Virus record (IMG/VR): IMGVR_UViG_3300028734_000011
DNA length: 64,000 nt
Reading direction: 5' to 3' (one strand)
Source: a virus
Each line of letters opens with the position of its first letter. Within the stretch, counting starts at the first letter, position 1. The translations under genes were made by a program, and so were the position numbers. Shown here in pieces: positions 4,300 through 32,357 of this stretch. The notes beneath the pieces are model-generated. The model saw only the letters and a list, made by a program, of their open reading frames with translations. It was not told where the DNA came from and searched no databases.

Positions 4300-4797
4300 T
4301 TATAAGTTAAATTTATCAGCAGTTTGACACAATAAATAATCTTTATATTTATCTGGATAATCTCTCATTATTTTTTTCTTAATTTCTGGTTTTAAATAAT
4401 CAAAAAATGTAATTTTAACTGTTCTGCCTTTAATATTCCAATTTGCATTTGAGTCTATTAACAATTTCAAAATATTATAATATTCAACATCATTCAATTC
4501 AATAATGGAAGAATAGAACCCTGATAATAATAATGGAGTCCAACCTTGAGTAGTATTATCTTGAAAATTTACATCAGCTCCGTTATTAATCAAAAAATTA
4601 ACAATTTTTATATCAGATTCTTTATTAATAGAATATATTAAAGGAGTATATCCATCTTTATTAAAAAAATTCACATCAGCGCCTTTATTAACTAAGATTT
4701 TAACTTTTTCAAAGTCATTAGTTAAGCAAGCAGCAATTAATTGATCATTTAAATCTGGTTGATTAGAATTCTGCTCAAAATTCTTTATATGTTTCAT
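4300..4797 (-). CDS. cassette-family protein, ankyrin-repeat subtype
   Basis: N-term MKHIKNFEQN, C-term ADKFNL; ANK repeats (GADVNFFNKDGYTPLIYSI, GADVNFQDNTTQGWTPLLLSG); ATGA overlap with next gene. Confidence 0.7.
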   Translation of the reverse strand: MKHIKNFEQNSNQPDLNDQLIAACLTNDFEKVKILVNKGADVNFFNKDGYTPLIYSINKESDIKIVNFLINNGADVNFQDNTTQGWTPLLLSGFYSSIIELNDVEYYNILKLLIDSNANWNIKGRTVKITFFDYLKPEIKKKIMRDYPDKYKDYLLCQTADKFNL

Positions 4798-5318
4798 ATG
4801 TTAAATTTATCTGAGTTTTTTTTAGTTAAATATATTTCATATTGATTAGGATATTTCTTTAATATAAATTTTTTAATTTCTTCATTTTTATTTAAATAAT
4901 AAATAAAATCACGAATTATATTATTACCATAATTTTGTTTAATGTTCCAATCTGAACCTGCTTTTATTAATTTTTGAATTATTGATACGAAATAATTAAT
5001 GCTTGAACCAGTAAGTCCCATAGATGATAATATCAAAGCTGTTGTTCCATTTTCATCTTGAATATCTAAATTTGCTCCTGATTTTATTAATTCATCAAAC
5101 ACATTTTCATATCTATTTATAATAGCGAAATGCAATGCAGGTTTTCCATTTAATTGATTTGGTAAATCTAAATCTATTTGTCCAGATTTTATCATATTAA
5201 TCATTTCATTTTGGCCTTTCTGATTTAAATCTTTTTGTCTTATAAGATTTAATAAATCATAAGTATGATATTGATTTTCATTAATTTTTAATTCTTCGTA
5301 TAATTTGATATGTTTCAT
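4794..5318 (-). CDS. cassette-family protein, ankyrin-repeat subtype
   Basis: N-term MKHIKLYEEL, C-term SDKFNI; ANK repeats (GKPALHFAII..LIKSGANLDIQDENGTTALILSS). Confidence 0.7.
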   Translation of the reverse strand: MKHIKLYEELKINENQYHTYDLLNLIRQKDLNQKGQNEMINMIKSGQIDLDLPNQLNGKPALHFAIINRYENVFDELIKSGANLDIQDENGTTALILSSMGLTGSSINYFVSIIQKLIKAGSDWNIKQNYGNNIIRDFIYYLNKNEEIKKFILKKYPNQYEIYLTKKNSDKFNI

Positions 5319-9440: not shown

Positions 9441-10128
9441 ATTTCCATTTTTTTATGAAATCAATTTCAGATTTTCTAAATAATATATCTAGTCTATATC
9501 CATCACAGCTAAGTATTTTTCCAACTGAATACCTAAAAATAACATTTTTGTAATGTCCTTCTGACTCAAACATTTTTTTTGCACATATTTTTAATATTTT
9601 CTTACGTTTTCTTGGTAATCTTTTTCTAATCATTTCCCAATGAGAAGGATTTGGATTTTTTGGTTTTGTATAAGAATGTTTTTTACAATAATAATTATCC
9701 TTATAATCAGTAGTATATGAAGTAGGCTTACCACATTTACAGCATTTTGTCAAAGGTTCAAATACCGTAGATGAATATGAACAATGTTTACAGTATGCAT
9801 ATCCATCAGTTCTATTTCTACGTTCCATTTCATGATTACAAGTTAAAATTTTTTGATATTTTTTCCAAGCATTTTCTTCAGATTCTTCCATTGTTTTTCC
9901 TTCACCTCTAATAAAGCATTCTGGATTTTTTGGAAATGCTTCAAAAAATGCTGTTTCATAACATTTCTTGCTTGACATTCCTTCTGATAATTCTTTTAAA
10001 GGATCACCAGAAAATACTTTATCAAAACTACCTGATGGTAAAACAATTCCAGATTCTCCTCCTTGACAAAAACAATTCCAATCATACTTAGAATCATATT
10101 CATTACTGCTTGACATTCTTACTTTCAT
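9439..10128 (-). CDS. Cys-rich zinc-finger-like protein
   Basis: 229 aa with many Cys/His clusters (CNHEMERRNRTDGYAYCKHC, CCKCGKP, YCKKHSY) and a basic C-terminal tail. Confidence 0.5.
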   Translation of the reverse strand: MKVRMSSSNEYDSKYDWNCFCQGGESGIVLPSGSFDKVFSGDPLKELSEGMSSKKCYETAFFEAFPKNPECFIRGEGKTMEESEENAWKKYQKILTCNHEMERRNRTDGYAYCKHCSYSSTVFEPLTKCCKCGKPTSYTTDYKDNYYCKKHSYTKPKNPNPSHWEMIRKRLPRKRKKILKICAKKMFESEGHYKNVIFRYSVGKILSCDGYRLDILFRKSEIDFIKKWK

Positions 10129-10349
10129 ATGTTTGTATATTTTAATTTATCTAATTTTTTTCTTCTAATTTCTTTTGTTGTATCAAAATAATCATTTATA
10201 TTAGACATTTTTATTTCAGGAAAATCATAAAACATATGTCCATTAATTTTAATAAATCCATCATTTACATAGTTATCATCATTTTCAGTATTATAGTATT
10301 TACCTACAATAAAATAATCATTTTTTGCCTTTTTACATAGATATTTCAT
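10125..10349 (-). CDS. hypothetical protein, MKYLCK paralog family
   Basis: MKYLCKKAKNDYFIVGKYYN...EIRRKKLDKLKYTNI; paralogous to 10385..10606. Confidence 0.4.
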   Translation of the reverse strand: MKYLCKKAKNDYFIVGKYYNTENDDNYVNDGFIKINGHMFYDFPEIKMSNINDYFDTTKEIRRKKLDKLKYTNI

Positions 10350-10384
10350 TATGAATTTTTTATATGAGGCAAAGATACAATAAA

Positions 10385-10606
10385 TTATTTAATATCAAGC
10401 AATTTTTTTAATTTTATTTTTCTAATTTCTTTTACAGTATAAAAATATTTATATATTTTTGGTTCTGATGGATTATTTGTATTCATAACAAAAAATAATT
10501 TTTCAATTTTAACATAATCTTTATTATTTGTTAAATAACTATTATAATATTCACCAGAAATAATTTCTTTTGAATATGTTCTTTTACATAAATATTTCAT
10601 TTGCAC
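10385..10606 (-). CDS. hypothetical protein, MKYLCK paralog family
   Basis: MQMKYLCKRTYSKEIISGEYYN...EIRKIKLKKLLDIK. Confidence 0.4.
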   Translation of the reverse strand: MQMKYLCKRTYSKEIISGEYYNSYLTNNKDYVKIEKLFFVMNTNNPSEPKIYKYFYTVKEIRKIKLKKLLDIK

Positions 10607-10800
10607 TTATTCATTATTGTTGTAATTTCATCTTTATCAGTAATATTATATTTCTTCAAATCTTTCATAATATTAAAAGAGAATGTATCATCAAATAATA
10701 CTACATCACTTTTAAAATATTTAAAAAAACTTAAATAATCTCCACTATTTGCAATATTTTTAAGTGAATCTTTTGATATATATCTTTTGTTGAATCCCAT
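10597..10800 (-). CDS. hypothetical protein
   Basis: 67-aa ORF, start of the minus-strand block; a divergent promoter region follows. Confidence 0.35.
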   Translation of the reverse strand: MGFNKRYISKDSLKNIANSGDYLSFFKYFKSDVVLFDDTFSFNIMKDLKKYNITDKDEITTIMNKCK

Positions 10801-10952
10801 GATTTTTATTTTTATTTTATATAATTATTAATTTATTATGTTTGATATTTAATAATATTTAACTACAATATAATGATATTAATTCTTATATATTTTTGTA
10901 TATCAGATTTTTGTTGTACTTTTGTATATCATTAATTTAAAATATAAACAAT

Positions 10953-11714
10953 ATGGAATTAATTGGATTTGCAAATAAATTTTACACTCTTTGGAGTTAT
11001 TCAGAAGAACCTTTGTATAGCACAGTTAATAATCAATCATATCAATATGGTATCAGACAGATATATAATTACATTAAGAATATATCTTTTGATTTAGATA
11101 AAGTTAAAGAACTTTATCCTGATGTTGTAATTGATGATGAATTAAAAGGTAAAAGTGCAAGTTGGACAACAGAGCCAAAATTTGAATACCCTGCTGAATG
11201 TTTTCATTTTGGTAAATACCAGGGACAACTTATCAGTGAGTGTAAAGACCAATCTTATCTGATTTGGTACTATGAAAATGGTTTGTATGATGAACGTCTT
11301 ACTATAACAAAAAATAGATTAGTTGAATTAGGATGTGGTTTTTATGATGATATGATATTTTCATCTATAGAATTACTTAATCAGTATACTGAAAGAATAA
11401 CTAAACAAGCGGAACTTTCAAAGATTATTTGTGAAACTTATGATAAATATAAAACACCTGGTATTTTTTCATATGATTTTAATCATTCTTTAAACAGTGA
11501 AGGAAATTATGCAGATGCTTCATTTGATTTTCATTTCAATGAATATTCTGAACAATATTATTCTGGATATAATTTTGGATTACCTTTAATGAATGGTAAG
11601 GCTAAAAGAATTAAAAACAAAGTTCTTGAAATGGAGGTTGTTACAGTAGAAAATGATGAACTTGACTATAAATATTTTAAAGTATTAAGCCTTAAATCAG
11701 TAAAAAATATATAA
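10953..11714 (+). CDS. hypothetical protein
   Basis: 253-aa ORF, no recognisable motif. Confidence 0.45.
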   Translation: MELIGFANKFYTLWSYSEEPLYSTVNNQSYQYGIRQIYNYIKNISFDLDKVKELYPDVVIDDELKGKSASWTTEPKFEYPAECFHFGKYQGQLISECKDQSYLIWYYENGLYDERLTITKNRLVELGCGFYDDMIFSSIELLNQYTERITKQAELSKIICETYDKYKTPGIFSYDFNHSLNSEGNYADASFDFHFNEYSEQYYSGYNFGLPLMNGKAKRIKNKVLEMEVVTVENDELDYKYFKVLSLKSVKNI

Positions 11715-11984
11715 ATGAATATAATTAAAAAAGTAATAAAAAATATTATCAGAGAATTTAAACCAGTGTATACTCAAGTGGTAACTGATGTTCCTGATGA
11801 ACAATATTATGAATATAAATGTTATAAAAACGACAAATATACTCATACTGTGAATATGCATTATTTCACAAATGAACAGATTAATGAATTTAAAGATATT
11901 CAAGAACAAATAAGTAATCAGCAAAAAGAAACATTAAACAAAAAAATACAGAATATAAAAAATAATAATCATTATGAAAATTAA
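11715..11984 (+). CDS. hypothetical protein
   Basis: 89-aa ORF starting 1 nt after the previous stop. Confidence 0.4.
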   Translation: MNIIKKVIKNIIREFKPVYTQVVTDVPDEQYYEYKCYKNDKYTHTVNMHYFTNEQINEFKDIQEQISNQQKETLNKKIQNIKNNNHYEN

Positions 11985-12225
11985 TAATGAAGAGGAATAT
12001 ATTGAAGCAAAAGAATCAATTAGAGAATATGAAAAAATAAATGATATTATATTTCCATATAATATCCATGTAGGCGATACAGTTGCTTATGTTTCTAACA
12101 GTAAAAGATTTGGAAATGAACTTATAAACGTAAAAGTAACTGAAAGTTTTCTTAGCGATCTTATTAAATATGAAGGTATTGAAAATTTTCATCAATTTAG
12201 AATAGTAAAAAAATACGATGAATGA
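11974..12225 (+). CDS. hypothetical protein
   Basis: 83-aa ORF, overlaps neighbours by a few nt. Confidence 0.4.
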   Translation: MKINNEEEYIEAKESIREYEKINDIIFPYNIHVGDTVAYVSNSKRFGNELINVKVTESFLSDLIKYEGIENFHQFRIVKKYDE

Positions 12226-12448
12226 TCCTAAATTTAAAAAAGGTGATAAATGTATATATGTATATCGAATTTTAGAAGATGATAAATTTTTATCTATTCT
12301 TGATTATGATATGACAATTTCAGATAATCCATGGTTTTATGAACAATATAATATATGGTATTATCCTATAAAAGGAAAGGCGAATGATTGTCCTGAATAT
12401 TTTCTTAGAATTTGGGAAAATGATATTGATATGTTTTATGATGAATAA
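12218..12448 (+). CDS. hypothetical protein
   Basis: 76-aa ORF. Confidence 0.4.
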   Translation: MNDPKFKKGDKCIYVYRILEDDKFLSILDYDMTISDNPWFYEQYNIWYYPIKGKANDCPEYFLRIWENDIDMFYDE

Positions 12449-12459
12449 AAAAATATAAA

Positions 12460-13260
12460 ATGAATAAAGAAGAATTAATACAAGTGTTTGAAGACACAAA
12501 ATTACACAGTGAATGTATGTTGAAATCAGAAACTACTATACATTCATTTGATGATAGATTAATGCCAGATATTAGCATTCCTTGTCATGAAAACATACAA
12601 GTTATAAATTCTGATAGTGTATCTGCAGTTACAGAATATAGTAAATTAGGAAAAACTTGTGTTCTTAATATGGCATCATTTAAACGTCCAGGTGGAGGAG
12701 TTGCAAAAGGGTCCAAAGCACAGGAAGAATGCTTATTTAGATGCTCAAATTTGATTCATTTAATTAATACTGATAATTATCCATTGAATGATGATAACGC
12801 ATTATACACTAAAGATGCCACATTTTTCAAGGATGTATATTATAATTATATGAATGACGTTCAATCTGATGTTGTAACTATTGCAGCATTAAATCTTAGA
12901 AATGTTGATATTAATAGTCATTCTGATACAATAACAAGTGAAAATATATCATCAATAAATTCTGATGGAATAACAATATCAAATTGGGATTATGAACAAC
13001 TTACTAAGGAAAAAATAAGATTGATGTTATCACTTGCAATTAAAAATGATGTTGATATTATAATTTTAGGCTCATTCGGATGTGGAGTTTTCAAAAATGA
13101 TCCTGAAAAAATGGCTAAAATATTCAAGAAATTATTAGTAAATGAAGGATATTCTAAATATTTTGAAAAAGTAATATTTGCGATTATCAATGACAATAAC
13201 TCAGTAGGTAATAATTATGAAATTTTCAAAAATGTTTTTAGTGATTATAATTTAATTTAA
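12460..13260 (+). CDS. bacterial-type poly(ADP-ribose) glycohydrolase-like macrodomain protein (DUF2263-like)
   Basis: FKRPGGGVAKGSKAQEE matches the PARG signature GGG-x6-8-QEE; a second Gly-rich loop LGSFGCGVFKNDP is typical of the macro fold. Confidence 0.6.
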   Translation: MNKEELIQVFEDTKLHSECMLKSETTIHSFDDRLMPDISIPCHENIQVINSDSVSAVTEYSKLGKTCVLNMASFKRPGGGVAKGSKAQEECLFRCSNLIHLINTDNYPLNDDNALYTKDATFFKDVYYNYMNDVQSDVVTIAALNLRNVDINSHSDTITSENISSINSDGITISNWDYEQLTKEKIRLMLSLAIKNDVDIIILGSFGCGVFKNDPEKMAKIFKKLLVNEGYSKYFEKVIFAIINDNNSVGNNYEIFKNVFSDYNLI

Positions 13261-13269
13261 TTTAATATT

Positions 13270-14022
13270 ATGAAAAATGCATTAAGTTTATTGCAGTCAA
13301 AAGCATTAGTAGACACTATTAACATGTTATATGATGATGGTGATTTAGCTATAATTTTACCAGAATTATATAACTTATACACAACTAATGATGGTCATAA
13401 AAATAATTATTACCACACATTAGGAGTACTTAATAATGTAATTAAATATGACAATGATAACTTAAAAATGAAAATTGTTGCATTATTACATGATATTGGA
13501 AAGATTTCTGTTAGATCTAAAAATGATGATGGAAATTGGACATTTCATGATCATGAAAATGTAGGAGCAAAAATGGTTAAAAAAATCTTGAAAAGATTTA
13601 ATATAACCAATAAGAAAACTATTGATTATGTTTACAGAATGGTTAAATATCATGGTAGAGTAAAAATGCACAGAGATGTAACAGAATCAGCTATAAGAAG
13701 GCTTGACGTGGAAGTTGGACCTGATATAGTATTAGAGTTGATTGAGTTCTGTAAGTGTGACATAACCACTAAATATGAAGATAAAAGACAACGTATTGTT
13801 TCAGGATTAGATGAAATAAAAAAAAGAATATTAGAAGTTCGTAACAAAGACAATGAATCTAAATGGCGTTCTCCAATAACAGGAATTATAATAATGAAAA
13901 TGTTAGGAATAACTACTGGTAGAATGGTTGGAGATATAAAGAAAGTAACTGATGAAAAAATAAAATCAGGTGAATGGACTGAAGATGATGCTATTAAATA
14001 CATTGAAACATTTAAGATATAA
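13270..14022 (+). CDS. HD-domain phosphohydrolase
   Basis: YYHTLGV...ALLHDIGK...HDHENVGAKMV: the H...HD...D metal-binding pattern of HD-superfamily enzymes (cf. HD domains of CCA enzymes and 2',3'-cyclic phosphodiesterases). Confidence 0.6.
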   Translation: MKNALSLLQSKALVDTINMLYDDGDLAIILPELYNLYTTNDGHKNNYYHTLGVLNNVIKYDNDNLKMKIVALLHDIGKISVRSKNDDGNWTFHDHENVGAKMVKKILKRFNITNKKTIDYVYRMVKYHGRVKMHRDVTESAIRRLDVEVGPDIVLELIEFCKCDITTKYEDKRQRIVSGLDEIKKRILEVRNKDNESKWRSPITGIIIMKMLGITTGRMVGDIKKVTDEKIKSGEWTEDDAIKYIETFKI

Positions 14023-14107
14023 TATGTAGTGCAAAATAGCACGCTTGATACCCAAAAAAGGATAAACAATTAAACTCAAGAGGTCCTGTAAAATCAGGCA
14101 TATTTAG

Positions 14108-14140
14108 AAAAAGATAATACTTATGTATTATCTTTTTTGT
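14108..14140 (+). terminator. rho-independent terminator
   Basis: AAAAAGATAATACttatGTATTATCTTTTTTGTTTTTG. Confidence 0.6.
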
Positions 14141-14177
14141 TTTTGTATAATTAAATAATAATATATAAAAATAAAAA

Positions 14178-15047
14178 ATGCATAAAGTATTAATAACAGG
14201 AGGTGCTGGATTTGTAGGAACTAATCTTATTAAATATTTAAAGAAAAATTATAAAGACATAGAAATATCATCATTAGATAATTACTTCACAGGAAAAAAA
14301 GAAAACCATGTAGATGAAGTCATATATTACGAAGGTAATACATGGAATGCACCTGAAATATTTAAAGATAAAAAATTTGATACAGTATTTCATTTTGGAG
14401 AATATTCAAGAATTGTAAAATCATTTGATGATATTAAATATGTAGAAAAAACAATTTTATATGGCACTCCAATAATAATGGAATTATGTAGAGAATGGAA
14501 TGCAAAATTAATATATTCTGCTTCATCATCAAAATTTGGAAATAATGGAGAAAATGAAAATTTAGCTCCATATTCATGGATGAAATCAAAGATTGTTGAA
14601 CTTATCAAAAATTATAATAATTGGTATAATTTACAATATGAAATTTGCTATTTTTTTAACGTGTATGGTGAATGTCAAATAATGACAGGTGATTATGCTA
14701 CTGTAATAGGTATATTTGAGCATCAATATATAGAAGGTAGCAAATGTACAGTTGTTGAACCAGGTACTCAGAGCAGAGACTTTACACACATTGAGGACAT
14801 TGTTAGAGGAGTAGTATTATCATCATTTACAAATATGAATCATGAATGGTATTTAAGGTCTGGAATAAATACTAACATTATTGATGTCGCTAAAATGTTT
14901 GGAGAATTTAAATTTGTATCTAAAAGAAAAGGTGAGAGATATACATCAGAAGAATTTGAGAATGATACTGAAAGTGAATTAAAATGGATACCAGAACATA
15001 AATTAGAAGATTGGATAGAATTAATAAAAAACAAAAAGAGAGATTAA
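14178..15047 (+). CDS. NAD-dependent epimerase/dehydratase (extended SDR)
   Basis: N-terminal Rossmann motif VLITGGAGFVGTNL; catalytic YxxxK (YSWMK). Confidence 0.7.
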   Translation: MHKVLITGGAGFVGTNLIKYLKKNYKDIEISSLDNYFTGKKENHVDEVIYYEGNTWNAPEIFKDKKFDTVFHFGEYSRIVKSFDDIKYVEKTILYGTPIIMELCREWNAKLIYSASSSKFGNNGENENLAPYSWMKSKIVELIKNYNNWYNLQYEICYFFNVYGECQIMTGDYATVIGIFEHQYIEGSKCTVVEPGTQSRDFTHIEDIVRGVVLSSFTNMNHEWYLRSGINTNIIDVAKMFGEFKFVSKRKGERYTSEEFENDTESELKWIPEHKLEDWIELIKNKKRD

Positions 15048-15062
15048 AAATCTCTCTTTTTG
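15036..15062 (+). terminator. rho-independent terminator
   Basis: AGAGAGAttaaaaaTCTCTCTTTTTG immediately after the stop. Confidence 0.55.
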
Positions 15063-15293
15063 TTATAATGCACCTTCTGATTTCATATCATCTTCTAATT
15101 TTAAAATTCTTTCTTCAAGAGCTTCTTTTTTATCTTTCCACATAAATGACACTTCATTGTAGAATGCTAAATTCCATAGTCTATCTGGATATTTCCATTC
15201 TGAATGACGTTTTAGTCTATCAATTAGAGAATAATAATCAGAACTATACGTTTCTGATACATTTTTGTTTGAATTATTTTCCATTATTTTCAA
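15063..15293 (-). CDS. hypothetical protein
   Basis: 76-aa ORF. Confidence 0.4.
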   Translation of the reverse strand: MKIMENNSNKNVSETYSSDYYSLIDRLKRHSEWKYPDRLWNLAFYNEVSFMWKDKKEALEERILKLEDDMKSEGAL

Positions 15294-15296
15294 TTA

Positions 15297-15575
15297 TTAT
15301 TTAGTTACTCTAACAATTGTATATTTCTCAGAAAAATCTCCGTTATCATGTTTAGTTTTTTCAACTTCAAATTCTCCTTTATTCAAAGAATTTAAGTATT
15401 TATGAAAATTTGATTCACTACCTTTTGAATTTTTACCTGTATAGCCAATAAGGTTAAATTCTTTTCTTTCTTCTTCATTTAAAAAGTTTAAATTATCGTA
15501 AAATGAAGATAAATATCCACTATTTGTAACTATTTTATGAATTTCTATTGCCATAATAATATTAATTAATTTCAC
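15297..15575 (-). CDS. hypothetical protein
   Basis: 92-aa ORF. Confidence 0.4.
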   Translation of the reverse strand: MKLINIIMAIEIHKIVTNSGYLSSFYDNLNFLNEEERKEFNLIGYTGKNSKGSESNFHKYLNSLNKGEFEVEKTKHDNGDFSEKYTIVRVTK

Positions 15576-15948
15576 ATATATTTAATTCAGAATTTACCTT
15601 TTCAACAAAAATAAGAATTTTTTCAACTACTTTATTCATTGATTTTACATTACATTTACGAAATTTAGAATTTAATCTTTCTCTGTTTGATGAATCTTTT
15701 TGATGTAAAGAGCATTCAAATACTTCGACTTCACCAGATTGTTCAATATTAAATCTTAAATAATTGGAATTTTGAAGATATCCATAATGCCAATTTTCAT
15801 TTTTATCAAATGATATAGTCAATATAATAGTATCATTTCCCATGCAAGCATTTGATACATTAAGATATTCTACCTTATCAGTTAATTCTTTACGTAAAAA
15901 TTCAATCGCATCAATTTGTTTTAAATTTTCATTATTGAAGATTCTCAT
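15562..15948 (-). CDS. hypothetical protein
   Basis: 128-aa ORF. Confidence 0.4.
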   Translation of the reverse strand: MRIFNNENLKQIDAIEFLRKELTDKVEYLNVSNACMGNDTIILTISFDKNENWHYGYLQNSNYLRFNIEQSGEVEVFECSLHQKDSSNRERLNSKFRKCNVKSMNKVVEKILIFVEKVNSELNICEIN

Positions 15949-16018
15949 ATCTTTATAAATTTTAATGATTAATTTGTACTACAAAAGTACAAATAATTAT
16001 TCATTATACCAAATATAT

Positions 16019-16483
16019 TTAATTTTTTTCTTTTGTTAAATCAATTTTTAATTTGATTTTTTTATTATACATAGCATTAAATATTTCCTCATGTGAAAAA
16101 TTCATTAGGCAAATATTCATACTATCATCAGATAATTCATTATCTTTTACTATAATATCTTCTCCTAATTTATTTTTTCCAATTTTTTTAACTTCAATTT
16201 TAGGACGTGGATAAATAAGAGTTTCCGGTTTTTTATATTCATGTAATCCGACAACTATCTCTCTTGATCTTATTTTATCAGTAAATATTTCATCATTCAT
16301 AACTGAAATACCATCATTTATTTTAGATAAAAATTCTTTATCATTTTCATGAACATAAATATGAAAAATATTAACCATAGTTGATATAACATCTTTATCT
16401 GTTGCCTCATATTTCATTGTCTTACAATTCATCAGAAATTTCTTATAACCTTTTTCAATCAAAAAATTTTCAAATGCTATCAT
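16019..16483 (-). CDS. hypothetical protein
   Basis: 154-aa ORF. Confidence 0.4.
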   Translation of the reverse strand: MIAFENFLIEKGYKKFLMNCKTMKYEATDKDVISTMVNIFHIYVHENDKEFLSKINDGISVMNDEIFTDKIRSREIVVGLHEYKKPETLIYPRPKIEVKKIGKNKLGEDIIVKDNELSDDSMNICLMNFSHEEIFNAMYNKKIKLKIDLTKEKN

Positions 16484-16805
16484 CTTCTATTATATTACCT
16501 AAATTATCTAATTTTGTTTTTCTAACATATTGAACACACTCATCATAATATCTTTTACAATCACGATTATAATAAGTTTCTACGTTCTGCTGTCCTTTCT
16601 CATTTGCATCTTTAACAACAGATTGTAAGCATTCACCACAACAATAGCTCCACAATGTACTCATTCTAGTATCATCTCCAAGAAAAACTGAAAATTCTTG
16701 ATTATTTACTTTGCAGTTATTACATAATGTTGAACCTTTCCCTGTATAGCCTACTATGACATGACTGAAAAGTTTATAATATTCATTTTTGTCTGGCTTT
16801 TTCAT
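16470..16805 (-). CDS. Cys-rich hypothetical protein
   Basis: 111 aa; CNNCKVN...CCGECLQ...CKRYYDEC. Confidence 0.4.
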   Translation of the reverse strand: MKKPDKNEYYKLFSHVIVGYTGKGSTLCNNCKVNNQEFSVFLGDDTRMSTLWSYCCGECLQSVVKDANEKGQQNVETYYNRDCKRYYDECVQYVRKTKLDNLGNIIEDDSI

Positions 16806-16806
16806 T

Positions 16807-17127
16807 TTATTTTTTTAATAATTTTAATTTTTTCTTTCTCAAAAAATTTTCAATATTTTTATCAAGTTTTTCTTTACTTACTAAAATACTACCTTTACCT
16901 TGAGTATAATCACAACAATCAATCCAATATTCAAATGTTATACCATCATCGTAAATATCAGTATGAGTAATAACTGAATAATTACCAAAATTACTATATT
17001 TATCTAATAATTCTGTAGCTAATTCTAAATATTGTTCTGTGATAGAATCAGCTTTATCTATTAAAACTTCTCTTTTTTTGTATATTACGTCATAAATCAT
17101 GATTCTGATATTTCTGAAATTAGCCAA
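16807..17127 (-). CDS. hypothetical protein
   Basis: 106-aa ORF. Confidence 0.4.
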   Translation of the reverse strand: MANFRNIRIMIYDVIYKKREVLIDKADSITEQYLELATELLDKYSNFGNYSVITHTDIYDDGITFEYWIDCCDYTQGKGSILVSKEKLDKNIENFLRKKKLKLLKK

Positions 17128-17471
17128 TTCATAAAATCTAACTCAGTTAAAAAAACTAAAATGGAATTCTCATCATAAGGAAAATCACACATAACACTTG
17201 AGCCAGAGATATTTTTTTCTATTTTTATATCATCTGATGTAAAAATAATTTTTATTTGTGTAGTCTCACCTTCTTCATAATCATTCCATCCATATGTTGC
17301 TTCAATAATATTATCATATATCACATCATATTCCAATATTGGTCCAGTTTCACTACCATTATGATAATATTCTGAATTGACTTTTTCTTCTTTATCAAAT
17401 AAAGCAATAGAGTTTAACATTACATCTGTTACATTCATAATATATAATATTTTAAAATTATAAGAATACAA
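17097..17471 (-). CDS. hypothetical protein
   Basis: 124-aa ORF. Confidence 0.4.
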   Translation of the reverse strand: MYSYNFKILYIMNVTDVMLNSIALFDKEEKVNSEYYHNGSETGPILEYDVIYDNIIEATYGWNDYEEGETTQIKIIFTSDDIKIEKNISGSSVMCDFPYDENSILVFLTELDFMNWLISEISES

Positions 17472-17544
17472 AGATAGTTATTTAAAATGATGTAGCCTAA
17501 TATAGTATTAATTTTTAGAAAATCAATTTAATATATATAGTCAT

Positions 17545-17889
17545 ATGAAATACTTGAAATGCTTTGAAGATTTATCAAATAGTGATTATAAGAAAGGTGA
17601 TTATGTTTTATTAGATTTAGATAAAATTAGATATAATAATAATGAGAGTGGTGACGTAGATGTAGATGAAAATGGTGATCCTACGCCATTTGATAAATAT
17701 GCATTAATAAATGAAATTACAGTTGAATTGAATAATGGTCAATTTCTATATAATGTCATATTTTATAATTATAATAAAGAAATAAATAATTCATATGGAG
17801 TTCAATCAGATGAAATAATAAGAAAACTAAACTCAAGTGAGATAGAAGTTTTTAATAGAAAAAAAGATGCATTAAAATATAACATATGA
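17545..17889 (+). CDS. cassette-family protein, GDYV subtype (first of array 2)
   Basis: MKYLKCFEDLSNSDYKKGDYVLL... C-term ALKYNI. Confidence 0.55.
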   Translation: MKYLKCFEDLSNSDYKKGDYVLLDLDKIRYNNNESGDVDVDENGDPTPFDKYALINEITVELNNGQFLYNVIFYNYNKEINNSYGVQSDEIIRKLNSSEIEVFNRKKDALKYNI

Positions 17890-18320
17890 AATATATCAAA
17901 AAATTTGAAAATAGATTTACTAACATATTTAAATCTTCTGATGTGAATATGTGGGATGAATATTTAGAAAACGAATTGGAAAATGATCATAGATTTAGTA
18001 AACTTTTTCAATCTGTACATATTGGAAATCTTAAAAGATTTGAATATTTATTACCAAAATATCTAGATAAAATAAATGATATTTATGATGGACAAAATAT
18101 ATTAATTAAGGTTATAATAGAAGATGTTGATTTATATGAACAAAAGAAGATGATTGAATTATTGTTAGATAACGGAATTGATTATAATTTTAAGTTTGAA
18201 GGTAAAACATTTTATGATTTTATGATTGATGAAAAATTAAAAAAATGGTTTGATAAAAAATATCCAGAAATAGTAAAAGAACTTAATTTAAATAAAAATG
18301 CAAATAAATTTAATTTATGA
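17886..18320 (+). CDS. cassette-family protein
   Basis: N-term MKYIKKFENR, C-term ANKFNL. Confidence 0.6.
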   Translation: MKYIKKFENRFTNIFKSSDVNMWDEYLENELENDHRFSKLFQSVHIGNLKRFEYLLPKYLDKINDIYDGQNILIKVIIEDVDLYEQKKMIELLLDNGIDYNFKFEGKTFYDFMIDEKLKKWFDKKYPEIVKELNLNKNANKFNL

Positions 18321-18640
18321 AATATATAAAAAAATTTGAAAAAACAAATAGAGATATAAAAAAAGGAGATTATGCTAAGTTAAATTTTCAAACACTTAAT
18401 TCAGAATTAAATAGTTTTTTTAGAAATAATTTTTGTAAAATTATTGAAACAAATGGATATAGTCCAATATGGTTTAAATTTGGATTTCAATACATACCAG
18501 ATGAACTTGTAGAATTTTTTAATAAGCAAGGTAAATATTATGTATATCATATACAATTGAGTACTGATGATGTAGTAGATTATGCTAGAACAATTGAAGA
18601 TTTAGAACTAAAATTATCAACAAAAAAATTTAATTTATGA
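18317..18640 (+). CDS. cassette-family protein, GDYV-like
   Basis: MKYIKKFEKTNRDIKKGDYAKL... C-term TKKFNL. Confidence 0.6.
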   Translation: MKYIKKFEKTNRDIKKGDYAKLNFQTLNSELNSFFRNNFCKIIETNGYSPIWFKFGFQYIPDELVEFFNKQGKYYVYHIQLSTDDVVDYARTIEDLELKLSTKKFNL

Positions 18641-19203
18641 AATATTTAAAACAATTTGAATTGATAAATTTTTATGATGAAAAAGACATATTTAGATATC
18701 TTTATCACTCAGATTTACCAAAAATAAAAGAATTAGTATCTGAGATACCTAATATTAATCTTAATATTAAAGATAAAAATGGCGATACTCCTTTGATATA
18801 TTCTATAAGATTTAGTTTATTTACAATATTTAAATTTTTAATTGAATCAGGAGCAGATATTAATTATACTGATACATTTGGAAATACACCACTAATACTA
18901 GCTGGAAGAAATAAAAAAGAAGAAATGACACAATATTTAATTGAATCAGGCGCTGATTTAGATATCAGAAATAATGATGGTGAAACAGTATTAATTATGT
19001 GTTCTAACTATAAAGATAAAAAGGCATTTAAAATAATTAAAATGCTGATTGAAAATGACGCTGATTGGAATGTATCTGATGATTTAGGTAATACATTTAT
19101 TGAATATTTATATCCTTTGTATAAAAAAGAAATCATAGAAAAATATCCTGATAAATATAGTAATTTTTTAATGATTAAAAATGCAAATAAATTTAACATA
19201 TGA
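18637..19203 (+). CDS. cassette-family protein, ankyrin-repeat subtype
   Basis: N-term MKYLKQFELI, C-term ANKFNI; 3-4 ANK repeats (DKNGDTPLIYSI..LIESGADINYTDTFGNTPLILAG..LIESGADLDIRNNDGETVLIMC). Confidence 0.7.
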   Translation: MKYLKQFELINFYDEKDIFRYLYHSDLPKIKELVSEIPNINLNIKDKNGDTPLIYSIRFSLFTIFKFLIESGADINYTDTFGNTPLILAGRNKKEEMTQYLIESGADLDIRNNDGETVLIMCSNYKDKKAFKIIKMLIENDADWNVSDDLGNTFIEYLYPLYKKEIIEKYPDKYSNFLMIKNANKFNI

Positions 19204-19580
19204 AATATATAAAAGAAATGAATACTTGGTTTAATAAATCAAAAGAAGGAGATTCAATAGTTTCAAGAATTTTTGATATTGTAAAAGAAGAAAATATTAA
19301 AATTTCACATAACGGAGGATATACAATAGAAATAGATGATTATATATATTCTTTTTCACATATAGGCATTTACTCTGTTGGTAAATATAATAAATCACAG
19401 AGAATAATATCAGGTGAATATAAAGGAATTATAACTGGACATCCTATATCAAATCATGAGTTTTCTAATAAATTATGGAAAGAATTGATAAAAATATATG
19501 ACAATCAACAAAAAAATGTAGATGAAGATTTAGATATTCTTAATCCTGTGACACGTTCTTCAAAAAAATTTAACATATGA
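19200..19580 (+). CDS. cassette-family protein
   Basis: N-term MKYIKEMNTW, C-term SKKFNI. Confidence 0.55.
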   Translation: MKYIKEMNTWFNKSKEGDSIVSRIFDIVKEENIKISHNGGYTIEIDDYIYSFSHIGIYSVGKYNKSQRIISGEYKGIITGHPISNHEFSNKLWKELIKIYDNQQKNVDEDLDILNPVTRSSKKFNI

Positions 19581-19978
19581 AATACATAAAGAAATTTGAA
19601 AGTGAAAGAGACGATTATATAAGAGATGTTAGAAATATTCAAAAAAAGGCTGATAACGATATAAAAAAAGCATATAAGGTCATGAAGAAATATATATTAT
19701 TTCATGATGTGAAGAAATTTATTGAATCTGGTATATATTTCATATTAGAAAAAGATAGAATAGAAGCTTGCTATGATCACACAAATCTTTTTATAGTAAC
19801 AAAGAAATTATATACATATAATTTAAATACAGATAAATTAAAAAATAATAAAAAACAAGGAATGTATTATAATTTATCAGAAACTAGTCTTAGTTATATA
19901 ATGAAAGATTCGGATGATTTACAAGAATTATTAGATTGCCTGCCTTCACTAAAAAATGTAAATAAATTTAACTTATGA
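19577..19978 (+). CDS. cassette-family protein
   Basis: N-term MKYIKKFESE, C-term VNKFNL. Confidence 0.6.
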   Translation: MKYIKKFESERDDYIRDVRNIQKKADNDIKKAYKVMKKYILFHDVKKFIESGIYFILEKDRIEACYDHTNLFIVTKKLYTYNLNTDKLKNNKKQGMYYNLSETSLSYIMKDSDDLQELLDCLPSLKNVNKFNL

Positions 19979-20448
19979 AATATATAAAATCATTTGAAAA
20001 TAATTTTACTGACATATTTAAAAAAAGAAAAAAATTACCTATTGAGGTTATTAATTTTAGTGAAATATTAACTAAAACTATAGAAAAAGCTATAGATAAT
20101 GATTGGGATGTTTATTCAAATATATATGGAATTAATAATAAAAAGTATTACGATATAATAAGTATTTTTGTTGATCCACATGATTTAGATGACGCAGCAG
20201 AAGTTGTAGAGTTACATTATAATCTTAGTAGAAATGCAATTCTTTATTGTTATCATCCAAAAATGAATTTCATGGAAAATATTCAAAATTTTTTATCTGA
20301 TATTATACGCAATAGTTCATGTGAAGATATATCGGTAAAGAATGATAATAGATATTGGATTCCATTAGATAAATTACCTGAAATAATAAATAAAATAAAT
20401 GATACAAATTTCGAATTGTTTAAAATGACAAATAAATTTAACTTATGA
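19975..20448 (+). CDS. cassette-family protein
   Basis: N-term MKYIKSFENN, C-term TNKFNL. Confidence 0.6.
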   Translation: MKYIKSFENNFTDIFKKRKKLPIEVINFSEILTKTIEKAIDNDWDVYSNIYGINNKKYYDIISIFVDPHDLDDAAEVVELHYNLSRNAILYCYHPKMNFMENIQNFLSDIIRNSSCEDISVKNDNRYWIPLDKLPEIINKINDTNFELFKMTNKFNL

Positions 20449-20891
20449 AATACTTAAAACGGTTTGAAAGTATAGTAGAAGTACTAAAGTATAATGATAA
20501 AGGACTTAGCTTACTACCAGAGTTACCAGATACAGCAAAAGAATTATATTGTTATCATAATCACTTGGTCAGGTTACCAAAATTACCAAGTTCATTAGAA
20601 ATATTGTCATGTTTTGGTAATGATTTGCGTGAACTACCTACTTTACCATATACAATAAAAAAAATATTTTGTTATTCAAATAATTTATCTGAATTGCCAG
20701 TATTACCTTATTCATTAGAAATTTTGAATTGTTGTGATAATAATTTAACTGAGTTACCAATTCTTCCAGAGTCACTAACACTATTAGTATGCACTGGAAA
20801 TAAATTACCCTATAATAATTTGTATGAATACAAAAAATGGCAAGAAATAAATATGCCTGATGTTTCGATGTCTAAAAAATTCAACTTATAA
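20445..20891 (+). CDS. cassette-family protein, LPX-type leucine-rich-repeat subtype
   Basis: N-term MKYLKRFESI, C-term SKKFNL; about five 20-aa repeats LPxLPxxLxxLxCxxNxLxx (LPELPDTAKELYCYHNHLVRLPKLPSSLEILSCFGNDLRELPTLPYTIKKIFCYSNNLSELPVLPYSLEILNCCDNNLTELPILPESL) like YopM/IpaH/SspH-type LRRs. Confidence 0.65.
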   Translation: MKYLKRFESIVEVLKYNDKGLSLLPELPDTAKELYCYHNHLVRLPKLPSSLEILSCFGNDLRELPTLPYTIKKIFCYSNNLSELPVLPYSLEILNCCDNNLTELPILPESLTLLVCTGNKLPYNNLYEYKKWQEINMPDVSMSKKFNL

Positions 20892-20892
20892 T

Positions 20893-21273
20893 ATGAAATA
20901 CATAAAAACTTTTGAATATAAAAAGAAAAAATATTATACTATTGAAAATGAATTAATTGATGCTGTATATAATAATCAGTATTCTAAAGTTAAAAGATTA
21001 TTAGATTCTGGATTTGATATTAATAGTACAGTAGTTGGAGAAAAAAATAATGCATTATTATATGCTTCGTATAAAGGATATTGGAGTATTTTATATCTAT
21101 TATTAAAATATAATCCTGATTGGTATGTAAAAGATGATAGTAAAACAGATTTTATTCAATTGATAGAGGAACATTTATATGGAGATAAAGTAATAGAAAA
21201 AATAAGAAAAAAATATTCAGAAAAATATGAAGAGTATTTAATGAAAAAAAACATAGAAAAATTTAATTTATAA
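20893..21273 (+). CDS. cassette-family protein, ankyrin-repeat subtype
   Basis: Track ORF 20860..21273 trimmed to the family start MKYIKTFEYK at 20893; C-term IEKFNL; ANK-like (LLDSGFDINSTVVGEKNNALLYAS). Confidence 0.6.
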   Translation: MKYIKTFEYKKKKYYTIENELIDAVYNNQYSKVKRLLDSGFDINSTVVGEKNNALLYASYKGYWSILYLLLKYNPDWYVKDDSKTDFIQLIEEHLYGDKVIEKIRKKYSEKYEEYLMKKNIEKFNL

Positions 21274-21275
21274 TT

Positions 21276-21587
21276 ATGAAAATTCAAAAATTCGATGAGC
21301 ATCATTTTACTACATTTAATGGAGAAATGTTATTAGCAGGTAAATCTAAATATCCAGTAGGCACTAAAATCAAATTTAAAGATGAAGGTGAATACTTAAC
21401 TGGCACTTTGACACATCCATTTGGTTATTGTAATGGTGATGTTGGAGTGTATTTAGATCAAAAAGGAAAGTATGTGGATGATAGATTGTGCTTAAAAAAT
21501 AGAGAATATATAGTAATTGATGATGATGTTGAAGAATATATGAAAGATAATACATTTAAAACAGATATAAAAAAATTCAATTTATAA
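21276..21587 (+). CDS. cassette-family protein (divergent N-terminus), last of array 2
   Basis: N-term MKIQKFDEHH, C-term IKKFNL. Confidence 0.5.
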   Translation: MKIQKFDEHHFTTFNGEMLLAGKSKYPVGTKIKFKDEGEYLTGTLTHPFGYCNGDVGVYLDQKGKYVDDRLCLKNREYIVIDDDVEEYMKDNTFKTDIKKFNL

Positions 21588-21633
21588 GTGAAATAGCTTA
21601 TAATGCGTATTTATAAGTGAAATAGCTTATAAC

Positions 21634-21678
21634 AAAAAAATCCTATCTGATTTTTCAATTAGATAGGATTTTTTTTAT
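21634..21678. terminator. bidirectional intrinsic terminator
   Basis: AAAAAAATCCTATCT-gatttttcaatt-AGATAGGATTTTTTTT; preceded by a 20-nt direct repeat ATAAGTGAAATAGCTTATAA x2 (21587-21640). Confidence 0.6.
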
Positions 21679-21689
21679 ATTGCTTGAGA

Positions 21690-22650
21690 ATACAGCATTA
21701 TAGAGAAGAACTTTAGAAACTATTATTTTTTCTGCTTCTTTTCCACCAATCTTTTGAATTGGTACTCCTCCAATGACGGTCAATTAGATTCACCACTCCT
21801 TTTGTTGTTAGATACTCTCTTAATAATCATTACTCATCTAGAATGCCTTCCAGATTAAATCTTGCGGATTTAGAGAACTTTCTTAAAAATCATGTTAGAC
21901 TTGGGGTCTTTCACGGCTATAACGAATTTCTTCTCATAACTAGTAGTCACCTATCTCCAACAACAGTCGAACTCTTTTCCTTTATTTGTTTATTTTAATT
22001 TTGCATTAAATTTGCAGTTAAAGTTTGTTTTGTGGATGATGAAAGTAGTGGTTCGACAACCAGATTCTCCATCTTTTGAACGGAGCTATACTAAACTACT
22101 CTCTGAGATATCCCTACCTCCATATTTTAAGTTAACTAAGACACTCTCATATCCTTTGGTAAAGATAGGGTAACCTTAATAACAGCACCACCTGTACATT
22201 GGATTACAATCTTATTTACCTTTCGGTTTTAAGCCAACTTTTATATTGGATAACGCAATTACACAACTGGAAATCGTGTTTCTTGCAATAATCCTTCAGG
22301 TTATTCTTATTGATGTTCCCATCTCACTTAGACTACCCACATAGCCCTTGCATTAAACCACTTTCTCTATAGTGTTACCCTCGATAATTAAGGTTTAATG
22401 ATATCCTGATTGTCTGCTCGAACACTAAATGAATATTACTAACAAATTTTTATAACTAATAACTATTATTCACATAATTGAATGTTTTATATAAACTCAC
22501 CGAAGTAAGTTTATTTACGAACAATTATATGTCAAACTATTAGCCTAATAATCTGTTAAATAATAAATCATTTGATGTCGCAAATATATAGAAACAACTA
22601 CATATTCACTTTATCCTACTTTCGTAGTTTATTTAATGACTACAGACAGC
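21690..22650 (-). rRNA. degenerate small-subunit rRNA-like segment (3' half), possibly a pseudogene or captured fragment
   Basis: ORF-free and GC-elevated. The minus strand shows SSU-like motifs in the correct colinear order:
- CAGATTATTAGGCTAATAGT (cf. CAGGATTAGATACCCTGGTAGT)
- TAATTATCGAGGG (cf. AATTGACGGGGG)
- AGTGGTTTAATGCAAG (cf. TGTGGTTTAATTCGATGCAACG)
- AAGAATAACCTGA (cf. GAAGAACCTTACC)
- ACAGGTGGTGCTG (cf. ACAGGTGGTGCATGG)
- TTAGTTAACTT (cf. TTGGGTTAAGT)
- GGAGGTAGGGATAT (cf. GGAGGAAGGTGGGGAT)
- TCTGGTTGTCGAACC (cf. TCTGCAACTCGACTCC)
- GGTGAAT...ACCGTCATTGGAGGAG (cf. GGTGAATACG...CCCGTCACACCATGGGAG)
The universally conserved ACACCGCCCGTC core is truncated and there is no anti-SD tail. 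Confidence 0.4.
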
Positions 22651-27702: not shown

Positions 27703-28317
27703 TTGAAAAAAATTATCATGAAAAACTTATCAATATTATTAGTCTTTTTGTTTTTATCAATATTATCTTTTTCTCAAAGGACAAATGTTATAGTTAAAAA
27801 TGATATCTATACAGTATCATATAATGAAGTGTATAAACAGCCTAATTGGGTCATTTACTATATAACTAATGAATCAAAAAATGTATCAAGAGCAGGAATG
27901 AATTTTTATGAAGTACCAGGTATAATCACATCAACGAATGCTGATTATGTTCATAACGTATGGGATAAAGGACATTTAGCTCCTGCTGCAACATTTTCTG
28001 ATACAAAAAATCATTTATATGAAACTTTTTCATACCTTAATTGTTCGTTACAACGTGATTCATTAAATAGAGTAACTTGGGAACATTTAGAGAATTATGA
28101 AAGAACTATATTATTTAAAACTTATAAAAAATTGACAGTAAAAGTAGTTTTAGATTTTTCTGGTAAAATTATTATACTTAAATCTGGTGCTCATGTACCT
28201 AATGGATTTTACAAACAAATAATTACTCCCACAAATGATACATTAACATATTATTTTCCTAACTCTGTTCTACCTCATGATTTTTATTTTTATAGAATAA
28301 AAAATATAAAAATATAA
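27703..28317 (+). CDS. secreted DNA/RNA non-specific endonuclease (Serratia NucA / EndoG family)
   Basis: N-terminal signal peptide (MKKIIMKNLSILLVFLFLSILSFSQ); active-site motif NVWDKGHLAPAA (cf. DRGHxAP); followed by a terminator. Confidence 0.65.
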   Translation: MKKIIMKNLSILLVFLFLSILSFSQRTNVIVKNDIYTVSYNEVYKQPNWVIYYITNESKNVSRAGMNFYEVPGIITSTNADYVHNVWDKGHLAPAATFSDTKNHLYETFSYLNCSLQRDSLNRVTWEHLENYERTILFKTYKKLTVKVVLDFSGKIIILKSGAHVPNGFYKQIITPTNDTLTYYFPNSVLPHDFYFYRIKNIKI

Positions 28318-31977: not shown

Positions 31978-32357
31978 AATACTTAAAAAAGTTTGAAAGT
32001 AGAGAGATATCAATAGATCCATATTTAAAAAAAATATATGTATCAAATAACGATTTTACTGATTTATATGATGAAATTAAAACTCTAACTAATTATAAAT
32101 TTGATTTTGAATTATATTATAGAGTAGATGAAAAATACATATTCAATATTATAGTATTTATTAAATCTAATGAGTATACAATGAGTAAATCTATGCATTA
32201 TTATGGTTATATACGTTATGATACATTAAAATCCCATATTAACACATCAGATGCAAATATTATGAAAAACTATTTAAATGAGTTAACAGATTGGACTCAT
32301 ATTAATAATAAAAATGATATTGAAACTGAAATCACTGCAAATAAATTTAATATATGA
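31974..32357 (+). CDS. cassette-family protein
   Basis: N-term MKYLKKFESR, C-term ANKFNI. Confidence 0.6.
   Translation: MKYLKKFESREISIDPYLKKIYVSNNDFTDLYDEIKTLTNYKFDFELYYRVDEKYIFNIIVFIKSNEYTMSKSMHYYGYIRYDTLKSHINTSDANIMKNYLNELTDWTHINNKNDIETEITANKFNI

Follow-up and report, generated by a model that had tools for sequence, protein, structure and literature searches.

Three neighbouring genes in a piece of viral DNA raise the question of whether a phage can carry a dedicated module for processing ADP-ribose. The genes lie in a 64,000-nucleotide stretch of the IMG/VR virus record IMGVR_UViG_3300028734_000011 (the window, by which we mean the whole stretch that was analysed). They encode a protein of the poly(ADP-ribose) glycohydrolase (PARG) family, a protein with an HD domain and a nucleotide-sugar epimerase of the short-chain dehydrogenase/reductase (SDR) type. 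A first-pass annotation had placed these three co-directional open reading frames (ORFs) correctly, and each has a strong family match:

12460-13260, plus strand: gene 1, PARG-family protein of 266 amino acids (PF10021 / TIGR02452; from profiles, motif and model)
13270-14022, plus strand: gene 2, headless CCA-enzyme paralogue of 250 amino acids, with the body/tail and an HDIG-type HD domain and no polymerase head
14178-15047, plus strand: gene 3, extended-SDR nucleotide-sugar epimerase/dehydratase of 289 amino acids

The same annotation had proposed that the HD and SDR enzymes process ADP-ribose products as a module with the PARG. We did not retain this proposal: the HD protein is CCA-derived, the SDR is generic, and the linkage was found in one clade. 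A three-gene ADP-ribose module is not supported, we consider it very probable that none exists, and the claim should not be carried forward. Our best reading, held with moderate confidence, is that these are three independent accessory genes of a huge phage, without a dedicated ADP-ribose-processing operon, and that genes 1 and 2 act in RNA maintenance. The PARG enzyme family is known; new is a viral member next to two unrelated accessory genes.

Family membership of the three genes

We hold the family assignments of the genes with high confidence. Gene 1 passed the cut-offs of both PARG profiles, PF10021 (PARG_cat_microb; E=1.4e-19, 71.4 bits, cut-off 23.5) and TIGR02452 (115.9 bits, cut-off 50, with profile positions 56-265 of 266 covered). 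It contains two motifs of the family:

12691-12729, plus strand: PARG signature GGGVAKGSKAQEE, GGG-x7-QEE, residues 78-90, with the catalytic Glu89 and Glu90
13069-13092, plus strand: GSFGCGVF loop, by homology the putative diphosphate-binding loop of the macrodomain

The signature had been described as an intact GGG-x8-QEE. The QEE is indeed intact and the spacing is x7, which falls within the published signature of bacterial-type PARG, GGG-X6-8-QEE, with both catalytic glutamates (PMC8120803). We aligned gene 1 with 16 homologues, down to 30% identity, and G78-G80, Q88, E89 and E90 were invariant in the 17 sequences, as were G204, G207, C208, G209, V210 and F211 of the loop. GSFGCGVF aligns with LGAWGCGVF of DrPARG.

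At the structural level, a profile built from this alignment and searched against the PDB retrieved only PARG chains of D. radiodurans (5zda) and T. curvata (3sig), at E~1e-40. The AlphaFold2 (AF2) model of gene 1 (predicted local distance difference test, pLDDT, 82.4; predicted template modelling score, pTM, 0.86) was compared with the PDB using Foldseek. Ranks 1 to 13 were all TcPARG or DrPARG, with E from 2.9e-14 to 4e-10 and a template modelling (TM) score of 0.60-0.67, and the closest was 3sih (E=2.9e-14, TM 0.67). Canonical PARGs, SauMacro and MacroD-type domains followed at E 1e-5 or worse, a gap of at least nine orders of magnitude. The QEE is not replaced and the protein does not group with non-catalytic macro-like families, which agrees with the first description of a PARG-like macrodomain. 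The comparison with DarG macrodomains, also suggested there, came out negative: no PADLOC model, DarG included, matched gene 1 at E<=0.01, and no DarG entry was among the 50 best PDB fold matches of the model. A PHROGs scan of gene 1 matched no family. From profiles, motif and model, gene 1 is a confident member of the bacterial-type PARGs and a predicted active ADP-ribosyl glycohydrolase.

Relatives of gene 1 are encoded on at least 326 IMG/VR contigs, mostly of jumbo or huge phages. Metagenomic homologues at 55-60% identity, several of them on contigs of at least 0.6 Mb, form a set distinct from the bacterial ones, and the best matches in species genomes reached ~36% identity (pattern-based scan of 185,579 species genomes). 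No characterised phage PARG was found in the literature searched.

Gene 1 also carries a Ser/Asn/Ile-rich, clade-specific insertion of ~20 amino acids, NVDINSHSDTITSENISSINSDGITISNW (residues ~147-175, nucleotides 12898-12984; pLDDT ~71-76), which is missing in homologues at 63% identity or less.

The second gene had been annotated as an HD phosphohydrolase. The HD domain was confirmed (PF01966, E=6.3e-12, 46.2 bits, cut-off 22; TIGR00277 HDIG, 32.2 bits, cut-off 27.6), and a generic HD hydrolase was rejected: the protein is the C-terminal half of a class II CCA-adding enzyme. It aligns to positions 217-461 of 466 of TIGR02692, the actinobacterial CCA tRNA nucleotidyltransferase (E=2e-39; 135.5 bits, far under the equivalog cut-off of 438.8), to the class II enzyme of Aquifex, 3WFO, at residues 230-500 (phmmer) and to positions 186-380 of 392 of phrog_2244, a phage tRNA nucleotidyltransferase (PHROGs). 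PolyA_pol, the Pol-beta head, gave no Pfam match in gene 2. The AF2 model (pLDDT 90) is closest to 3wfp/3wfs; Foldseek ranks 1 to 17 were all 3wfo-3wfs chains (TMq 0.57-0.60), and other HD proteins appeared at E 0.04 or worse. The HD motif itself is located as follows:

13489-13494, plus strand: His74-Asp75 dyad of the HD motif (LHDIGK)

All HD metal ligands (H49, H74, D75, H95, H128 and D164) were invariant across 17 homologues. The relatives in IMG/VR separate by length: at 43% identity or more, all are ~250 amino acids, and at 39% or less they are mostly CCA-type enzymes of 430-560 amino acids with an N-terminal head. We further searched 1.84 billion representatives clustered at 50% identity exhaustively and counted the best 150. 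About 45 of them are 238-281 amino acids long with the match starting near the N-terminus; the rest are mostly 400-690 amino acids with the match starting well inside, typically at residue ~190-290. Based on the profile alignments, the AF2 model, the HD ligands and the lengths of the relatives, gene 2 is assigned to a diverse headless offshoot of the HD-containing CCA-adding enzymes, a family of ~250 amino acids that is represented in metagenomes.

In four other huge-phage loci, a protein of 376-394 amino acids is encoded upstream of, or within ~1.7 kb of, the headless HD gene:

L169:3191-4375, L103:5082-6236, L098:6817-7947 and L099:6844-7998: HD-neighbour protein of 376-394 amino acids, with the pattern ...FLQLT/FLKLTS...YPY.TE

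A second pattern common to the four proteins is ...F(T/A)(C/S)HLDT; for one of them a weak Peptidase_M28 match was obtained. This protein may be a conserved partner of the headless HD protein; no homologue of it was noticed beside the HD gene of the window.

For gene 3, the annotation as an SDR sugar-nucleotide epimerase was right. It matches PF01370 (Epimerase; E=4.5e-31, 108.5 bits, cut-off 20.9) and phrog_540, 'nucleotide-sugar epimerase' (E=8.7e-40), and it has both motifs of the fold:

14199-14219, plus strand: Rossmann motif GGAGFVG (GxxGxxG), residues 8-14
14571-14585, plus strand: YSWMK (catalytic YxxxK), residues 132-136

No specific NCBIfam equivalog was found for it (best TIGR02197, 80.5 bits against a cut-off of 274.6; the remaining models likewise scored far short of theirs). 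Its best PDB matches are 6dnt and 4zrm (UDP-glucose 4-epimerase), and it is nearest to UDP-hexose 4-epimerase-type structures. Homologues occur in 134 phage records, cyanophages and Vibrio phage Kuja among them. Judged by its sequence, gene 3 is a common phage epimerase unrelated to genes 1 and 2, and nothing ties it to ADP-ribose.

Linkage of the PARG, HD and SDR genes

The spacing between the genes, given as 10-150 nt in the first-pass annotation, is 9 nt between genes 1 and 2 and 155 nt, A+T-rich, between genes 2 and 3. Terminators had been placed only after the second and third genes, and this is where we found terminator-like hairpins; no inverted repeat was found between genes 1 and 2.

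14108-14137, plus strand: terminator-like hairpin 3' of the HD gene, a perfect 13-bp A+T-rich stem with a 4-nt loop, then a TGTTTTTGT T-run
15030-15064, unstranded: perfect 16-bp hairpin over the SDR stop codon, where minus-strand genes converge on the SDR gene

The T-run of the hairpin at 15030-15064 is on the minus-strand side. A consensus terminator scan reported this hairpin only and passed over the one at 14108-14137 because it has too few G-C pairs. Since the spacer is 9 nt and no hairpin intervenes, genes 1 and 2 are probably co-transcribed, and gene 3 appears to be its own transcription unit.

This tight, co-directional spacing is one of the observations in favour of PARG, HD and SDR as a single module that degrades or recycles ADP-ribose products or jointly reverses host-imposed, DarT-like ADP-ribosylation. 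Moreover, the gene order is kept where the PARG is 81-86% identical, and D. radiodurans has an operon with a PARG and an HD-phosphatase (PMC11833690). However, we consider such a module very improbable. In a tblastn search of 79 IMG/VR loci with a PARG relative and their 8-kb flanks, HD and SDR were near PARG only in the window's own clade, with PARG proteins 81-86% identical, and the linkage is thus confined to one close clade. The HD protein derives from a CCA enzyme and not from a nucleotide or ADP-ribose hydrolase family. The generic SDR lies 3' of a terminator-like hairpin, and inserted genes part it from the HD gene in some relatives (two extra genes, of 43 and 179 amino acids, where the PARG is 81% identical). 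Gene 1 shows no similarity to DarG. HD and Epimerase do not rank among the 25 commonest families of sampled PARG neighbours, either in the 35 phage clades or at the 63 bacterial loci. The synteny analysis has already largely refuted the module.

These neighbour families come from two censuses. For phages, PARG proteins clustered at 60% identity gave 36 clades, and the four nearest genes were classified by Pfam in 35 clades. The top family accounted for 3 of the 139 neighbours, and no recurrent partner of phage PARG genes emerged. For bacteria, the genes immediately flanking PARG (TIGR02452) were counted at 63 loci (from L251-L330), and the 126 neighbours included NADAR (12), Macro (5), ARH (3), Tpt1/KptA (3), TROVE/Ro60 (3) and PRPP-synthetase-like proteins (3). 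Such neighbours hint at islands of ADP-ribose reversal and RNA quality control.

RNA maintenance and the alternatives

The window encodes a CCA polymerase head in a separate gene:

34770-35492, minus strand: head-only CCA-adding enzyme of 240 amino acids, with the Pol-beta head and the start of the RNA-binding neck, ~21 kb from gene 2

This ORF matches PolyA_pol (E=9e-20) and positions 5-240 of 245 of the head-only family phrog_24229 (E=8e-69), with the GGAVRD...DIDF, RRD and EDSLR motifs intact. With eight full-length CCA enzymes from phages, each cut to its first 225 residues, as tblastn queries, it was the single match in the window (E down to 3e-31). The CCA-enzyme head and the HD half are therefore seen here as two genes, on opposite strands and 21 kb apart.

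A second genome was available for comparison, the 642-kb uncultured huge phage LR756502.1, which we reassembled whole from its loci (L331-L344) and then searched:

246536-247333: headless HD protein of 265 amino acids
361826-362566: PARG homologue
597869-599053: CCA-type enzyme of 394 amino acids, 351 kb from the HD gene

All three genes are more than 100 kb from each other. An HD protein and a separate CCA polymerase thus coexist in two distant huge phages, unlinked to each other or to PARG. This headless HD family, coexisting with a separate CCA polymerase, is the most interesting by-product of the analysis, and it points to an unbundling of CCA polymerase and phosphohydrolase functions in huge phages.

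Gene 2 could be the trans-acting C-terminal subunit of a split CCA enzyme, binding the head-only protein and restoring its tRNA affinity, with the HD chemistry secondary or vestigial. The head ORF (positions 4-200) and gene 2 (186-380) together span the whole of phrog_2244, the window contains both genes, which are kept across the clade, and gene 2 retains the body/tail region, which is the tRNA-binding part of class II CCA enzymes. Still, we regard a split enzyme as rather unlikely. Head-only enzymes are very common in phages on their own (452 GenBank records and 315 IMG/VR contigs, from phages of all sizes and with many small contigs), so the head does not strictly depend on the HD protein. 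Lak phages match the head query and are not among the HD matches, and the HD protein of LR756502.1 is paired with the 394-amino-acid CCA-type enzyme and not with a head-only one. Besides, the invariance of all HD metal ligands argues for retained catalysis. The commonness of lone head-only enzymes and the LR756502.1 enzyme weaken in particular an obligate split enzyme.

For the PARG and HD pair we tentatively propose a role in RNA repair, which seems possible to us rather than probable. Glu89 and Glu90 of gene 1 would hydrolyse the O-glycosidic bond from C1'' of a terminal ADP-ribose to a ribose 2'-OH or a phosphate. Its likeliest substrates would be adducts of ADP-ribose that host ADP-ribosyltransferase (ART) toxins or defences attach to RNA, at a 2'-OH or a phosphate end, or to other macromolecules. 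Gene 2 would act as a stand-alone tRNA-binding HD phosphohydrolase, descended from the C-terminal half of an HD-containing CCA enzyme, and would most likely strip 2',3'-cyclic or 3'/2'-phosphates off damaged tRNA 3' ends. After that, the head-only enzyme at 34770-35492 could restore the CCA terminus. On this reading, the two genes would be co-transcribed since both serve RNA maintenance under host attack.

As background for such chemistry, the HD domain of E. coli Cca is reportedly a 2',3'-cyclic phosphodiesterase, 2'-nucleotidase and phosphatase, a finding attributed to Yakunin and co-workers in 2004. The window also encodes two further candidate RNA-repair enzymes:

36271-37209, minus strand: Pnkp-like polynucleotide kinase and 3'-phosphatase (AAA_33, E=5.9e-10; PNK3P (HAD), E=2.2e-9)
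28420-30063, plus strand: PPK2 fused to a 'Swiss-army-knife' RNA-repair HAD domain, 547 amino acids (PPK2, E=1.1e-72; HAD_SAK_2, E=1.3e-23)

The Pnkp-like gene and the head-only CCA gene share a strand and are ~780 bp apart, and gene 2 is ~22 kb from the Pnkp-like gene. The PPK2-HAD_SAK fusion, whose homologue in LR756502.1 has 388 amino acids, suggests RNA end processing driven by polyphosphate or nucleotides. This is in line with the dispersed RNA-repair sets of jumbo phages, which include CCA enzymes, Pnkp-HAD, SAK-HAD and HD-like phosphatases (PMC7824862). Bacterial-type PARGs, in turn, clear ADP-ribosylated phosphate ends and shield E. coli from an RNA-targeting toxin; SCO0909 and DRB0099 were the only tested hydrolases that reversed RhsP2-type 2'-OH ADP-ribosylation of RNA, and the operon mates of DRB0099 are an RNA/DNA ligase and an HD-phosphatase/polynucleotide kinase (PNK) (PMC11833690).

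In its most specific form, the pair would be a two-step tRNA/RNA rescue cassette: ADP-ribose is stripped, blocking phosphates are cleared and the acceptor end is rebuilt by the head-only enzyme. We find this version doubtful. If true, it would be the first viral system that reverses RNA ADP-ribosylation, and it would give a function to the large undescribed family of headless CCA paralogues in huge phages.

Several observations weigh against an RNA-maintenance role shared by genes 1 and 2. In a hidden Markov model search, a CCA-related gene lay within 8 kb of PARG in only 2 of the 36 phage clades, which by our rough estimate is about chance for one such gene per 200-700-kb genome. No PARG was found in the 6-8 kb flanks fetched around the headless HD genes of other huge phages, where the neighbours differ, and in LR756502.1 a distance of 115 kb separates PARG from HD. 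Among PARG neighbours, the Tpt1/KptA, TROVE/Ro60, NADAR and Macro genes of bacteria and two RNA ligases, one RtcB and one Thg1 of the 139 phage neighbours speak for such a role, but the RNA-repair theme is sparse. With no conserved linkage, the PARG-HD coupling could be mere local gene order in one lineage. In addition, pLDDT is low in the catalytic loops of the gene 1 model, ~60-66 at residues 71-90 and below 50 at residues 207-210.

The second clade in which a CCA-related gene is close to PARG is unrelated to that of the window and consists of 12 loci (among L063-L088) on contigs of ~57-220 kb, with PARG 33-36% identical. It has a full-length, HD-containing CCA enzyme of 488 amino acids 4-7 kb upstream of PARG, and a metallophosphoesterase-like gene and an AAA ATPase directly beside it. 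One example is:

L088:1085-2551: CCA enzyme
L088:8001-8615: PARG-like gene

As a linkage signal, this co-localisation was set aside as compatible with chance.

Gene 1 could also act alone, with the HD gene a mere neighbour, and serve counter-defence or host takeover by acting on ADP-ribosylated protein or DNA or on poly(ADP-ribose). It could erase the marks of host ARTs or trim those of phage ARTs and PARP-like enzymes. Hydrolysis of poly(ADP-ribose) is the founding activity of the family (PMC8120803), and both ARTs and PARP-like enzymes are known from jumbo phages (PMC7824862). The 326 IMG/VR contigs with PARG-like genes show no fixed partner, and bacterial PARG genes adjoin NADAR, Macro and ARH, that is, islands of ADP-ribose reversal. 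On the other side, no ART or PARP gene was identified among the window ORFs scanned. PARGs of the bacterial type are generally regarded as exo-glycohydrolases and are not known to remove protein-proximal ADP-ribose. On balance, a lone counter-defence enzyme is possible and fairly unlikely.

A further alternative is that gene 1 destroys soluble ADP-ribose immune signals, linearising the cyclic ADP-ribose (cADPR) isomer 2'cADPR to ADP-ribose and blunting Thoeris-type defence. The chemistry fits PARG specificity, as 2'cADPR holds a 1''-2' ribose-ribose O-glycosidic bond, the bond type of poly(ADP-ribose), and this linkage is described as a PARG target (PMC11833690). Phages are known to attack such signals: RyDEP, phage glycosidases of unrelated fold, linearise 2'cADPR and 3'cADPR in just this way (PMC13232231), and Macro domains of jumbo phages are predicted to degrade cADPR-type signals (PMC7824862). 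However, a PARG acting on cADPR isomers was not reported in the literature searched, and the cyclic substrate may misfit a site of the exo type that has a ribose cap. Gene 1 has no NARP1-like neighbours, and a CTP_transf_like gene is 40 kb away. We consider signal cleavage quite improbable. If phage PARG enzymes do erase host ADP-ribose marks or cleave ADP-ribose signals, they would represent a widespread class of counter-defence.

Phage context and known systems

We took the window to belong to the genome of a huge phage, of ~23% G+C, because of the size of the homologue contigs, the homologues in huge phages and a virion-family match. Across the window, G+C is ~21-27%. Proteins identical or 81-86% identical to gene 1 are on JGI, ENA and IMG/VR contigs of up to 711 kb, and distant homologues are in LR756502.1, Lak megaphages and Bacillus phage G. 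One window ORF matches a phage virion-protein family (PHROGs). A megablast of positions 10000-22000 against the GenBank phage collection gave no match, so there is no close cultured relative. ARAGORN found no tRNA genes in the window, and therefore the HD and head genes are not beside a tRNA array here.

Upstream of PARG, a 253-amino-acid protein and three small ORFs (10953-12448) have no Pfam match. In relatives with an 86% identical PARG no gene is called between the 253-amino-acid gene and PARG, so that these relatives seem to lack the three small ORFs. Other genes of the window were annotated as follows:

27703-28317, plus strand: non-specific DNA/RNA endonuclease
40934-41557, minus strand: MgtC-family membrane protein (E=3e-34); LR756502.1 has a homologue
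46216-47109, plus strand: weak radical-SAM match
54044-54661, minus strand: cytidylyltransferase-like protein (CTP_transf_like), possibly of nicotinamide or nicotinic acid mononucleotide (NMN/NaMN) adenylyltransferase type, ~40 kb from gene 1
61745-62446, minus strand: calcineurin-like phosphoesterase

In most cases MgtC is a protein of bacteria, where it acts in virulence and Mg2+ homeostasis. The window is dense in short ORFs, many in runs with overlapping stop and start codons. Among them are tandem arrays of small paralogues with such overlaps at 17545-21273, 4300-5318, 32354-33360 and elsewhere; their products start with MKY[LI]K.FE, frequently end with ...ANKFN[LI], and in several cases contain ankyrin repeats. 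These arrays are also present in the relatives with an 81-86% identical PARG.

Compared with known systems, gene 1 is like the bacterial-type PARGs (3SIG of T. curvata, 5ZDA of DRB0099, and SCO0909) in profile cut-offs, signature, GCGVF loop, size and fold (3sih/5zdc). As with DRB0099 of D. radiodurans, a gene of an HD-family phosphohydrolase is adjacent. Unlike known bacterial PARGs, gene 1 is phage-encoded, at most ~36% identical to its species-genome matches, and has the ~20-amino-acid insertion. The D. radiodurans operon DRB0100-DRB0098 combines a ligase, the PARG and an HD-phosphatase/PNK, whereas the window HD is a CCA body/tail that is not fused to a kinase and has no adjacent ligase; no ligase was found among the window ORFs scanned.

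DarG of the DarTG system is also a macrodomain protein and reverses ADP-ribosylation of nucleic acids, and orphan counter-defence enzymes of the DarG-like or NADAR kind are known from phages (PMC11825919, PMC13309987). Gene 1 differs in matching no PADLOC DarG model, and its fold matches PARGs and then SauMacro, MacroD2 and macroH2A. No DarT-like gene neighbours it; the flanks are the HD ORF and small ORFs without a Pfam match.

Gene 3 resembles phage epimerases (phrog_540; the WcaG-like protein of Vibrio phage Kuja and cyanophage P-SSM2), sharing 41% identity with the Kuja protein across 97% of its own length. Typical GalE and RmlB are longer than its 289 amino acids.

Finally, gene 2 aligns with HD-containing class II CCA enzymes (TIGR02692, 3WFO and E. 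coli Cca) over their C-terminal half, including the HDIG motif and the tail. Those enzymes carry the Pol-beta head and the catalytic motifs A-E in the same protein, whereas gene 2 lacks them and the head is a separate gene 21 kb off on the other strand. That head gene, 34770-35492, is a full-length match, at 45-47% identity, to phage head-only tRNA nucleotidyltransferases (phrog_24229; Cellulophaga phage phi17:2 and Microbacterium phage Cece). Lak phages match the head query and not the HD query, whereas here the head-only enzyme occurs alongside a separate headless HD paralogue.

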